From: Escherichia coli
Lineage (GTDB): Bacteria > Pseudomonadota > Gammaproteobacteria > Enterobacterales > Enterobacteriaceae
DNA: 64,000 bases
Direction: 5' to 3' (one strand)
NCBI RefSeq assembly: GCF_003334335.1
Contig: NZ_QOWQ01000011.1
Both the position numbers and the translations under genes were made by a program. The number at the start of each line of letters is the position of its first letter. Positions within the stretch are counted from its first letter, which is position 1. Below, piece after piece: positions 23,921-27,286 of the stretch. The notes under the pieces were generated by a model that was not told the DNA's origin, did no database searches, and saw only the letters and a list, made by a program, of their open reading frames with translations.

Positions 23921-24747
23921 GAAGATTCTTCTGGCTGGTCGCTGCCGCTCTGTTATTGGCAGGGTGTGCAGGCGAAAAAGGCATTGTCGAGAAAGAGGGA
24001 TATCAGCTTGATACCCGACGCCAGGCGCAGGCGGCGTATCCGCGCATTAAAGTGCTGGTGATCCACTACACCGCAGATGATTTTGATAGCTCGCTGGCGA
24101 CACTGACCGATAAGCAGGTCAGCTCGCATTATCTGGTCCCTGCGGTACCACCGCGATACAACGGTAAACCGCGCATCTGGCAACTGGTGCCGGAACAAGA
24201 ACTGGCCTGGCATGCGGGGATTAGCGCCTGGCGCGGGGCAACGCGCCTTAACGACACCTCTATTGGCATTGAGCTGGAAAACCGTGGCTGGCAAAAATCG
24301 GCCGGAGTGAAATATTTTGCCCCGTTTGAACCGGCACAGATTCAGGCGCTTATTCCACTGGCGAAAGATATTATTGCCCGTTATCACATCAAGCCGGAAA
24401 ACGTAGTGGCACATGCGGATATCGCACCGCAGCGCAAAGACGATCCGGGGCCATTATTTCCCTGGCAGCAACTGGCGCAGCAGGGGATTGGTGCCTGGCC
24501 GGATGCGCAGCGGGTTAACTTTTACCTTGCCGGGCGCGCGCCGCACACACCGGTAGATACCGCGTCATTGCTGGAGCTTTTGGCGCGCTACGGTTATGAC
24601 GTTAAACCTGATATGACACCGCGCGAGCAGCGGCGCGTGATTATGGCATTCCAGATGCATTTCCGCCCGACGTTATATAACGGCGAAGCGGATGCAGAAA
24701 CTCAGGCGATTGCCGAAGCATTGCTGGAGAAATACGGGCAGGATTAG
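23917..24747 (+). CDS. amiD: N-acetylmuramoyl-L-alanine amidase AmiD (lipoprotein, amidase_2 family), 276 aa
   Basis: Lipobox LLAGCAG; amidase_2/PGRP-like core; peptidoglycan-binding C-terminus. Confidence 0.88.
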
Positions 24748-25757
24748 CGCGGCAGTTTTCCGTGGTCGCGTAGCCAGGCGGCAGTTTTCTCGATACCTTC
24801 ATCCAGGGTGATGACCGGCTGATAACCTAACTCTTCCTGCGCACGCGTAATATCTAGCGTAAAGTCAAAATTCAACTTGGAGACGCCGTAGTGGGTCAGC
24901 GGCGGCTCTTTTGCTGACTTGCGGCCTAAACGCTCCATGCTGCGGGCGATCATATCCAGCATCGGGTAGGGGACGGAACGAATACGACAGTCAATATTCA
25001 ACTCGTCGATCAGCTTCTGCACGATGCTGCGCAGTGTGCGATGCTCGCCGTTGGTGATGTTGTACACACGCCCGGAAGGTAGCTTATCGCAGGCTTCCTG
25101 GCTTGCCAGCCACATTGCGTGCACGGCATTTTCATAGTAGGTCATATCGACCAGCGCACTGCCGCCATGCGGTAACAGAATACTGCCGTAGTGGTGCATC
25201 ATATGCGCCAGACGGGGAATAAAGACTTTATCGTGCGGTCCGAACAGACTTTGTGGGCGCAGAATAGTAAAGCGCGTTTGTGGATTCGCCTGCGAAAGCA
25301 TATTGATCACTTCTTCGCTGGCTGCTTTGCTGCGGGCAAACTCGTTGGCGAAGCGGTGAGGGCGAAAATCTTCTTTAATATCGCGATGGTGGTGATAATC
25401 GAAGTACAGGGAGGGGGAAGAGATATGAATAAAGTTACGCACACCCCAGGCGACAGCCCATTCACCCAGGCGGCGAGTGGCGCGAACGTTAGCCAGATCG
25501 AAAGCCTGTTGTGTCCCCCAGGGTGAGGTAAAGCTGGAGCAGTGCCACAGCGTATCAATGCCCGCGAGCATCACTTTAGCTTGTGATGAAACCAGCTCGG
25601 TCAGATCCGCCGGAACAAACTCTGCGCCCATTTTTTCCAGCAATTTGCCCATTGCCTCGTTGCGACCGGTCGCTCGCACGCTGATGCCTTTCTGGCATAA
25701 AAACTCTACCGCGTTTCGACCTAAGCCGCTGGTGGCGCCGGTAACCAGTACCTTCAT
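24744..25757 (-). CDS. ybjS: NAD(P)-dependent epimerase/dehydratase family protein YbjS, 337 aa
   Basis: ATG at 25755-25757 gives [13 protein letters not shown] (Rossmann GxxGxxG); stop overlaps the amiD stop convergently. Confidence 0.85.
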
Positions 25758-25855
25758 ATCAATCCACTGTTGTTGAGAAAATAACGTGCGCATTCTTCCG
25801 TGATTTCCCCCATGATGCAATGGGAAACATGAAAGAATAACGCAGGTTTTGTCGA

Positions 25856-27286
25856 TTAATCTGTGCTTTGTTCTGCCAGTCTGGCGATTTGTTTTGCCAT
25901 TCCGCGAAAAATAAACAGATGCGCGGGGATCATCAATAACCAGTAAAACAGCCCCGGCATACCGTGCGGATGCCAGAAAGCGCGGACATCGATAGTACGA
26001 TAGTCGCCTTTATCTTCCAGGCTAAAACACAGTCGTCCCAGCCCCGGCGCTTTCATGCCAAATAACAACGTAAGTTGTTTTTCCGGTTCAACGACAATCA
26101 CTTTCCAGCTATCCACCGCATCGCCAGTCTGTAAATATTCGCGCTCCGGGCGGCCTTTCGCCAGCTTATGACCGATCGCGCGGTCCATCAACGCCCGTGT
26201 CTGCCACAAAATATTGCCAAAGAAATAACGCTCTTTACCGCCGATTTGGTTCACTACCTGCCATAAAGCAGCAAGGCTGGCGGACGTTTTAACGGTAAAC
26301 CCCGCCTGTTTGGCAAAATAACCGTACTCCGGTCGCCAGCGGGCAAAGGCCTGAGCGTCGTAGCCCCAGTCGCTGGAGTTGACCAGTTTTTCCTCCTCTT
26401 TCAACGTGCTACGTACCGCGTCATCGAAAGCGATCAGCCGTTGTGGGATGAGTGCACGTAGCGCGGTATCATCCGCCAGCAGATCGTGTTTCAGCCCCTG
26501 AATCAACGCCCTGGCGGTGGTGGGCGGTACGGAAGTAATCACATTGAGAAACCACACCGAAATCCAGCGGGTGGGGAGGGGGATGGGGATCAACCAGCGG
26601 CGCTTACCGCTCACCGCCATAAAATGTTCAAACTGTTGCTGATAACTGAGCACCTCTGGTCCGGCGGCTTCGAAGATGCGGTGTTCGCTGGCCGGATGAT
26701 CTAACAACGCAACCAGATAGTGCAGCAAGTTTTCCAGCGCAATGGGCGTGGTGCGTGAACGAACCCAGCGCGGAGGCGTTAAGACTGGCAGGTTGTAGAC
26801 CATATCGCGCATGACTTCGAACGCCGCGGAACCTGCGCCAACGATAATTCCGGCCCGCAGTTCGGTCACGGGTACATTCGCTTCACGCAGAATGTCCGCC
26901 GTAGCCTGACGAGCACGCAGATGATCCGACTGCTCATGTGGCGGGGCCTGCAACGAACTAAGAAAGATTAATTGCTTAACTGGTACTTCACGTAGCGCAT
27001 CGCGGACGTTGAGAGCCACCTGGCGCTCCTGAGCGATAAAATCGCCGCCTTCGCCCATGCTGTGCACCAGAAAATAGACCGTATCGATATCCTGCAACAG
27101 GGCCGGTAGGTTATCCGGCCAGCTGAGATCGACTTTATGGCAACTGACGTTTGCCAGTTGCAGCTTTGCAAGCCTGTCGACATGACGTGCCGCCGCCAGG
27201 ATCTGATGCCCTTGCTGGCTGAGTGTGCGCACCAGATGCTGACCAATGTAGCCACTGGCACCGAGAACTAAAATGCGTTGCGGCAC
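25856..27286 (-). CDS. ybjT: Putative NAD(P)-binding protein YbjT (atypical SDR with C-terminal DUF2867-like region), 476 aa
   Basis: GTG at 27284-27286 gives (M)[15 protein letters not shown] Rossmann motif; length matches recalled YbjT. Confidence 0.8.

Follow-up and report, generated by a model that had tools for sequence, protein, structure and literature searches.

Two adjacent genes of Escherichia coli, ybjT and ybjS, each encode a Rossmann-fold protein of the short-chain dehydrogenase/reductase (SDR) type, and are analyzed here within a 64,000-nucleotide stretch of E. coli DNA (contig NZ_QOWQ01000011.1; the window, below). Both lie on the minus strand, ybjT at 25856..27286 (476 amino acids, GTG start) and ybjS at 24744..25757 (337 amino acids). 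Read 5' to 3' along that strand, the open reading frame (ORF) list and the annotation give the order poxB (28335-30053), ltaE (27297-28298), ybjT, ybjS, with poxB and ltaE as the upstream genes of the ybjT operon (PMC2759082) and ybjT as the last gene of the published poxB-ltaE-ybjT unit (PMC2759082, PMC6469107, PMC9369180). A 3-kb stretch at this locus matches E. coli K-12 MG1655 at 100% identity; of 5426 complete E. coli genomes, 5423 contain it, with its genes labeled amiD, ybjS, ybjT, and ltaE. The genes and their names are already catalogued, as are the operon and the HxxxR feature discussed below; both genes are uncharacterized, and the observation as first noted is one of annotated genes in ordinary gene order.

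The preliminary description of the locus, made from the DNA letters, had pointed to two uncharacterized proteins of SDR/epimerase-like Rossmann type, encoded side by side on one strand, each with a glycine-rich dinucleotide-binding motif at its N-terminus and neither with a substrate that could be read from its sequence. It had also singled out a 10-bp gap separating ybjT from ltaE directly upstream and a long C-terminal extension on YbjT. These points all stand. The translations carry both motifs, the extension is the DUF2867 domain of Pfam (residues 332-463), and the ltaE stop codon occupies 27297-27299, exactly 10 nt from the ybjT GTG. The intervening minus-strand spacer, 27287..27296, reads ggagagagac, is Shine-Dalgarno-like, and carries the ribosome-binding site. 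The term "tandem pair", if taken to mean a tandem duplication, is ruled out: BLASTP aligns YbjS with YbjT over only 32 residues around the glycine motif (E 0.002), and judged by their sequences the two are not paralogues.

YbjT: an atypical SDR fused to an SRPBCC domain

YbjT is an atypical SDR in which S-x-H-L-x-x-R replaces the usual Ser...YxxxK, fused to an SRPBCC domain. Its gene closes the poxB operon and is translationally coupled to ltaE. Pfam assigns NAD_binding_10 to residues 9-148 (the NAD_binding_10/NmrA region spans 1-150) and DUF2867 to the C-terminal part, an architecture shared by all homologues listed. The AlphaFold model has a mean predicted local distance difference score (pLDDT) of 84.6 and a predicted template modeling score (pTM) of 0.81. 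Pfam, this model, and Foldseek agree on an NDUFA9/NmrA-like Rossmann domain at residues 1-300 (26387..27286, minus strand) with the motif GASGYIG. Over residues 1 to about 300, the best Foldseek matches are the complex-I NDUFA9 homologue 9g83_P, GalE-type enzymes, KstA11, and SimC7, the last an active ketoreductase without the canonical triad. The coupling to ltaE is tight throughout the family Enterobacteriaceae, for the gap measures 9-14 nt in 73 of the 78 species sampled.

The solved protein closest to YbjT, by sequence (E 1e-8) as well as by fold, is 9g83_P. NDUFA9, the 39-kDa subunit of complex I, is a non-catalytic, NADPH-binding SDR at the membrane/quinone interface; E. coli complex I is not known to have a subunit of this type. 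YbjT differs from it in three respects. Pairwise alignment places His122 and Arg126 of the YbjT segment S120-D-H122-L-R-A-R126 (26909..26929, minus strand) where 9g83_P has Tyr and Lys, the aligned NDUFA9-type structures end at about 330 residues with no counterpart of DUF2867, and YbjT is encoded in the poxB operon.

In 26 sequences from four phyla (Pseudomonadota, Actinomycetota, Deinococcota, and Bacteroidota), S120-x-H122-L-x-x-R126 never varies, nor does a GxGSAxFExxR segment, and H122 and R126 are likewise invariant in the 78 Enterobacteriaceae species, so that HxxxR consistently takes the place of YxxxK. Full-length homologues came from Yersinia, Proteus, Aeromonas, Thermus, Allomeiothermus, Chondrinema, Streptomyces, Kitasatospora, Nonomuraea, and Arthrobacter. 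A genome scan seeded with YbjT itself returned only Enterobacteriaceae, at 76% identity or more, and served the synteny analysis; the distant homologues came from a plasmid collection and from metagenome contigs scanned with the Thermus homologue as seed. YbjT gives its name to the atypical SDR subgroup SDR_a2 of CDD, which is described there as having HxxxR, and to COG0702 ("YbjT, NAD(P)-binding and DUF2867 domains"). Nothing sets YbjT apart from that family, which has an extended-type glycine-rich motif and HxxxR and is without known function; the JGI name for relatives is "uncharacterized protein YbjT (DUF2867 family)".

The DUF2867 region, residues 318-476 (25859..26335, minus strand), matches the SRPBCC/START/Bet v 1 fold on a confident model, with a helix-grip fold enclosing a pocket. 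It retains only 4-15% identity to members of the SRPBCC superfamily (START, Bet v 1, polyketide aromatase/cyclase, PYR/PYL, and CoQ10-like proteins), and it differs from them also in being fused C-terminally to an SDR and in having an invariant polar set of its own: R364, D368, R379, D392, and H456. The full list of invariant residues in the 26 sequences adds G349, G350, W361, W394, Y448, W449, and F460. The polar set suggests a specific ligand or a specific chemistry. That YbjT is an integral membrane protein seems doubtful: its only hydrophobic segment, residues 442-460, reaches a borderline hydropathy maximum of 1.52, and the model makes it the long helix at the C-terminus of the SRPBCC domain. 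The treatment of YbjT as a membrane protein (PMC2672614, PMC10299036) probably goes back to this stretch.

Reported phenotypes of ybjT are indirect. Over-expression is detrimental in at least 10 Dub-seq conditions (bioRxiv 10.1101/387399), transposon mutants of the Salmonella gene are attenuated in mice (PMC2712085), and a Paraburkholderia YbjT homologue matters for rhizosphere colonization (PMC12630448).

Beyond the order Enterobacterales, genes of the YbjT family occur in other genomic contexts than the poxB operon. In the plasmid collection, the gene for a full-length YbjT homologue adjoins a photolyase/cryptochrome gene in two Streptomyces strains as well as in Chondrinema; its neighbor in Nonomuraea is a remnant of a photolyase. 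Thermus pTT27 has uvsE and the light-regulator genes ldrP and carH in the vicinity of its homologue, and in Kitasatospora fiedleri a spore-photoproduct lyase is encoded nearby. A family alignment with the Thermus protein at its head, scanned against metagenome contigs, yielded 80 loci, with 41-83% identity to that protein, and all ORFs neighboring them were clustered. The four most frequent neighbor families were CarH-like B12-binding MerR regulators (7 loci), photolyases (6), SRPBCC-SDR-DUF1731 proteins of the YfcH/TIGR01777 type (5), and DUF523/DUF1722 proteins (4). The last are the family of E. coli YbgA, encoded upstream of phr. Photolyase and CarH genes are roughly single-copy, and for that reason their frequency here, gauged with no formal background control, is far above chance. 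Such neighbors are seen, among other places, at the metagenome loci L092 (3998-8060), L094 (3968-6939), L099 (5001-9157), L090 (4998-11413), L110, L147, L108, L183, L169, L168, and L162. Reciprocal fusions can sit side by side in such clusters, an SDR-SRPBCC protein of YbjT type next to an SRPBCC-SDR-DUF1731 protein of YfcH type, as in PDB 3oh8 (L147 6565-7962; L090 6505-7128; L095 3786-4715). A second small SDR encoded beside the YbjT homologues of Thermus and Kitasatospora was considered as a counterpart of YbjS and proved not to be YbjS-type. YbjS-type proteins are absent from the frequent neighbor families of YbjT loci outside Enterobacterales. Within Enterobacterales, the hcp-hcr-poxB-ltaE operon stands in place of the light-gene context.

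YbjS: a keto-lipid-reductase relative with Phe for Tyr

YbjS is an orphaned member of a keto-lipid-reductase family in which a lineage-specific change of the catalytic Tyr to Phe is held under purifying selection. The ORF list, RefSeq annotation, Pfam, NCBIfam, and PDB sequence matches (NSDHL 6jkg and the NDUFA9-like 9g83_P) concur on an extended-SDR fold over the full length of the protein, with Pfam Epimerase at residues 3-234 (E 2e-29) and 3Beta_HSD at residues 4-256 (E 6e-17). Its best NCBIfam models are OleD (NF042422), HpnA, and SdmB, all scoring far below cut-off; for OleD, the 137 bits obtained fall well short of the 580 required for that equivalog, so YbjS is not an OleD in the strict sense. 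OleD, HpnA, SdmB, and NSDHL, which together comprise the best matches, are keto-lipid or sterol reductases, and YbjS aligns with this OleD and 3-beta-HSD/NSDHL/HpnA/SdmB branch from residue 1 to residue 328 of 337. The nucleotide-sugar enzymes score much lower. YbjS reaches 54, 39, 28, and 37 bits against the GalE, RmlB, RmlD, and HldD models, whose cut-offs are 365, 262, 224, and 275, and YbjT reaches at most 22 bits against any nucleotide-sugar model.

The dinucleotide-binding motif of YbjS, TGATSGLG (residues 6-13; 25719..25742, minus strand), has the classical TGxxxGxG spacing rather than the TGxxGxxG of extended SDRs. Column counts over 129 relatives and 79 orthologues show that most relatives have TGATGFLG and that G10S is clade-specific; YbjS may still bind the cofactor, and an Arg after strand beta-2 makes a preference for NADP(H) likely. 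At the position of the SDR YxxxK motif, YbjS reads F140-A-R-S-K144 (25326..25340, minus strand), with the Lys kept. In three pairwise alignments, Phe140 falls on the catalytic Tyr of NSDHL 6jkg, of the NDUFA9 homologue 9g83_P, and of MoeE5 6kv9. The catalytic Ser/Thr...YxxxK set is thus incomplete, S113 and K144 being present and residue 140 being Phe. Among the 129 full-length relatives, 32-47% identical, that a HMMER scan of 1.84 billion cluster representatives produced, position 140 is Tyr in 128, and K144 and S113 are invariant.

Closer to E. coli, Phe140 is invariant in the 78 Enterobacteriaceae species and occurs in Yersinia as well. In a set of 120 orthologues that share 70% identity or more with the Yersinia protein, Phe is found in Yersinia, Serratia, Rouxiella, and Enterobacteriaceae; Tyr is kept in Hafnia paralvei, Edwardsiella tarda, and two others (P0454 being among the Tyr-bearers); and one orthologue (P0434) has Leu. 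In a neighbor-joining tree, a crude one without bootstrap values, the main Phe clade is monophyletic and a separate Tyr-to-Phe change falls in Enterobacillus tribolii (P0402). Proteins P0402, P0434, P0399, P0440, and P0454 display the variation at this site (Phe, Leu, Tyr). It seems that only in the YbjS orthologue group can the catalytic-Tyr position lose its hydroxyl. Other changes fixed in the Phe clade, G10S, A74S, A75S, and R169Q, lie in cofactor- or substrate-contact or active-site motifs.

The gene shows no sign of decay. In comparison with E. albertii its ratio of nonsynonymous to synonymous substitution rates (dN/dS) is 0.011, and between genera the values are 0.02-0.07; they are just as low for ltaE and indicate strong purifying selection. 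YbjS is also an obligate GroE substrate (PMC9228906). Because this selection coexists with Phe in place of the catalytic Tyr, YbjS is evidently maintained, though not as a textbook SDR.

Relatives that keep the Tyr offer a view of what the family may once have done. In four of the five closest Tyr-type relatives that we looked up, from Pseudomonas viridiflava/alliivorans, Serratia liquefaciens, and two metagenomic contigs, the gene sits in a shared operon with overlapping reading frames (L081 4078-11029; L085 4997-13009; L100 5006-10917; L101 3870-9680). The order is a FabH-like 3-ketoacyl-ACP synthase III (KAS III), the YbjS-like SDR with its Tyr, a metallo-beta-lactamase fold protein, a protein of about 430 amino acids in which Pfam finds no match, PAP2_3, FA_hydroxylase, and sometimes one or two FA_desaturases. 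This apparently uncharacterized operon looks like a pathway for an unusual lipid. The SDR gene directly follows that of the condensing enzyme, start and stop codons overlapping, in a pairing like that of OleD with OleA; this shared logic points to a 3-oxo lipid-type substrate for the YbjS family. E. coli YbjS departs from OleD in its bit score, in the catalytic Tyr, and in having no condensing-enzyme partner beside it; indeed, none of the KAS III operon partners is present at the ybjS loci of the 78 enterobacterial species. At the five Tyr-type loci looked up, no neighbor has a DUF2867 domain.

Adjacency, the ybjT-ybjS spacer, and expression of ybjS

The order hcr-poxB-ltaE-ybjT-ybjS is found at every Enterobacteriaceae locus that reaches far enough, among the 78 species, and likewise in Yersinia and Hafnia. 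Edwardsiella keeps ltaE-ybjT-ybjS-amiD without poxB, and one genome that lacks both poxB and ltaE keeps ybjT-ybjS-amiD. Spacing between ybjT and ybjS is 80-110 nt in all 78 species, and it widens to about 420 nt in Hafnia and about 866 nt in Edwardsiella, distances that are not operon-like. Proteus and Aeromonas have ybjT without ybjS. The Proteus mirabilis gene is directly upstream of artP, with no ybjS, ltaE, or poxB within 5 kb (L088 4992-7290), and the Aeromonas caviae gene adjoins priA (L089 5001-6422); both records are chromosomes filed as "plasmids" in PLSDB. Synteny within a single bacterial order is weak evidence of a functional link.

In the window, the spacer occupies 25758..25855 on the minus strand, 98 nt from the ybjT stop to the ybjS ATG, and contains two blocks conserved across genera, an inverted repeat, and a promoter-like motif. 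In an alignment of 71 distinct spacers, the blocks TTATTCTTTCA.GTTTCCCATTGCAT and AATTCACGGAAGAATGCGCACG are conserved at 90% or more, and they form the arms of the inverted repeat (ATTCTTTC ... GGAAGAAT). They have been kept although synonymous sites are saturated across genera (dS above 1). Within them we read a promoter-like TTGCAT-N17-AAGAAT, which matches at 8 of 12 positions. RNA folding of the K-12 spacer gives a hairpin of -25.2 kcal/mol (z -3.8), followed by the U-rich run UUAUUUUCU. The inner stem of this hairpin is not conserved, and its invariant outer arms yield no covariation. A structured RNA or riboswitch was rejected as an explanation, RNAalifold having produced no consensus structure from the 71 spacers, and an Rfam search found no family in the spacer, its sole match being at chance level and inside ybjS. 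The hairpin may act in termination, as part of a promoter, or, given the Cpx response of ybjS, as an operator.

Published transcription units end at ybjT and are placed under sigma-S, Cra, MarA, SoxS, and NsrR control (PMC2759082, PMC6469107, PMC9369180). For ybjS, a Cpx-inducing array lists the gene alone, with a 2.3-fold increase (PMC2731931). These units, the separate listing of ybjS, and the conserved spacer with its hairpin and promoter-like motif together make it likely that ybjS is expressed separately. The preliminary description had named two findings that would mark the proteins as having unrelated or non-enzymatic roles: genes that are not co-transcribed, and proteins without the SDR Tyr-Lys dyad. 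Much of this is what we find. The units in the literature stop at ybjT, and the Tyr is absent from both proteins; the Lys is replaced in YbjT and kept in YbjS.

Two features of the flanking genes may be recorded here. On the downstream side, amiD (plus strand) converges on ybjS, with stop codons that overlap by 4 nt (24744-24747), and the pair has been catalogued as a convergent "excludon" (PMC12288877); many Enterobacter, Leclercia, and Lelliottia loci lack amiD at this position. On the upstream side, about 12 singleton E. coli records of 806-814 amino acids (proteins P0002-P0016) join LtaE and YbjT in one product. From the start of the ltaE stop codon to the ybjT start is 13 nt, which is out of frame, so each such record needs a frameshift as well as loss of the stop. 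They are probably assembly errors or rare mutants, and still show how closely the two genes abut.

Two unrelated genes and the competing explanations

We favor, at about an even chance, a composite explanation in which ybjT and ybjS are unrelated genes for non-canonical SDR-fold proteins, most likely expressed separately and with different roles. The two would have become neighbors in an ancestor of the Enterobacterales. YbjT would be a stress-induced, NAD(P)(H)-binding protein that may bind or reduce a small hydrophobic molecule (a quinone, an isoprenoid, or something lipid-like) in its SRPBCC pocket. The CarH/LitR-photolyase clusters suggest an ancestral role of the YbjT family in photo-oxidative or oxidative stress, and the gene is now found beside that for the quinone-reducing PoxB. 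The YbjS lineage, for its part, would have lost its condensing-enzyme operon partners in enterobacteria, after which the catalytic Tyr of the Yersiniaceae and Enterobacteriaceae proteins became Phe, together with G10S, A74S, A75S, and R169Q. YbjS may still bind NADP(H), acting either as a keto-reductase without the Tyr proton donor or as a non-catalytic nucleotide-binding protein.

Several points weigh against this explanation. A consensus scan of the minus strand between ybjT and ybjS found neither a sigma-70 promoter nor an intrinsic terminator, and read-through from ybjT into ybjS may still occur, the candidate promoter having only 8 of 12 matches. Hafniaceae, Yersiniaceae, and Enterobacteriaceae all retain the adjacency, and so do loci that lack poxB and ltaE, which would fit a functional pair too. 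Only a share of the YbjT-family neighborhoods is light-related, with one or more of the four frequent neighbor families present at 12 of the 80 metagenome loci, and at 9 of the 40 whose flanks reach 4 kb or more; moreover, with no CarH beside ybjT in E. coli, transfer of a light role to that species is an extrapolation. Cofactor binding, ligand, and activity are predictions for YbjS and YbjT alike. Hu et al. (2009) placed YbjT, tethered to the inner membrane, in a cell-envelope (Rff/Rfb) network, a result that the explanation does not account for (PMC2672614). Finally, the FabG variant Y151F keeps 50-80% activity, so that loss of the Tyr need not change function (PMC7973133).

The alternative that fares best overlaps with the favored explanation. 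It holds YbjS to be a pseudoenzyme, a folded SDR that binds NADP(H) without catalysis and senses redox state or partners another protein, much as NmrA, HSCARG, or NDUFA9 do, with YbjT likewise non-catalytic. The lineage-specific Y140F change, the two independent losses of the Tyr, and the one Leu variant in the orthologous group would all agree with this, as would the remodeling of cofactor-contact motifs alongside, the disappearance of the ancestral operon partners, a strength of purifying selection that shows YbjS not to be decaying, and the fact that the closest solved relative of YbjT is a structural complex-I subunit. We nevertheless consider it unlikely. K144, S113, and the glycine motif are all kept in YbjS, and the invariant His and Arg of YbjT look like a functional site. 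SimC7, to which YbjT is similar in fold, is active without the triad. Mutants of E. coli FabG, Y151F with its 50-80% activity among them, likewise indicate that loss of the Tyr alone does not mean loss of keto-reduction (PMC7973133). For YbjS and YbjT, FabG mutants and SimC7 are precedents only.

A second alternative, proposed in the preliminary description, is that YbjT and YbjS carry out consecutive steps of one short redox pathway, on sugar nucleotides or aldehydes, and have been kept together for that reason. The genes are indeed on the same strand, 98 nt apart, and their adjacency persists across three families (in 78 Enterobacteriaceae species, Yersinia, Hafnia, Edwardsiella, and the one genome without poxB and ltaE); the scan detected no strong terminator between them; and an aldehyde-handling reductase is conceivable downstream of LtaE, which by established enzymology produces acetaldehyde. 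What makes a shared pathway quite improbable is that the canonical Tyr is absent from both proteins, that neither has a family-level match to nucleotide-sugar enzymes, that Proteus and Aeromonas have ybjT without ybjS, that neither family lies near the other at the loci examined outside Enterobacterales, and that the published transcription units end at ybjT. The adjacency itself, kept in three families, may still reflect a functional link of some kind.

We regard as similarly doubtful a broader version of the light association, in which the YbjT family would be a hitherto unrecognized component of bacterial light- and oxidative-stress responses that binds or reduces a photo- or oxidation-sensitive hydrophobic cofactor, for instance a quinone or isoprenoid, and in enterobacteria has been re-wired out of CarH/photolyase clusters into the sigma-S/SoxS-controlled poxB operon, next to PoxB with its quinone-reducing activity. 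Enterobacterial YbjS, formerly a keto-lipid reductase and repeatedly shorn of its catalytic Tyr under purifying selection, would then have been recruited as its non-canonical partner. An envelope-polysaccharide role for both proteins, as nucleotide-sugar epimerases or dehydratases for enterobacterial common antigen (ECA), O-antigen, or lipopolysaccharide (LPS), is very improbable: the RefSeq name "NAD-dependent epimerase/dehydratase family protein", Pfam matches to Epimerase, RmlD_sub_bind, and GDP_Man_Dehyd, the Rff/Rfb neighborhood of YbjT in the 2009 functional atlas (PMC2672614), and a ybjT nonsense mutation in a phage-resistant avian pathogenic E. coli (APEC) strain (PMC8711792) speak for it, but that strain carried other changes besides ybjT (PMC8711792), the scores of 20-54 bits compare with cut-offs of 224-365 for GalE, RmlB, RmlD, and HldD, the loci examined have no glycosyltransferase or sugar-activation genes nearby, and SRPBCC domains bind hydrophobic ligands rather than sugar nucleotides.

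Literature retrieved under "DUF2867" consists of two incidental mentions, and under "ybjS" and "ybjT" of screen and list entries only; a link of the YbjT family to light genes is not described under "DUF2867" or "ybjT". Three points were not found in the searchable literature: the recurrent natural loss of the catalytic Tyr in YbjS orthologues alongside Tyr-bearing orthologues in Hafniaceae, the KAS III operon ancestry of YbjS, and the recurrence of CarH and photolyase genes beside YbjT-family genes, along with the assignment of DUF2867 to SRPBCC. We count them as useful leads, not as surprises.

Their value lies in where they direct attention. Ever fewer E. coli K-12 genes are without a function; ybjS and ybjT are among them, and YbjT gives its name to a COG spread over bacterial phyla. 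For both proteins the starting points are now sharper than the "epimerase/dehydratase" label: hydrophobic ligands and oxidative or light stress for YbjT, keto-lipid-type substrates and a natural Tyr-to-Phe switch for YbjS, with the Hafnia and Edwardsiella orthologues as a ready Tyr control. YbjS, moreover, is a clean natural case of SDR orthologues that have lost the textbook Tyr under strong purifying selection, and it bears on the practice of calling activity from the SDR triad.

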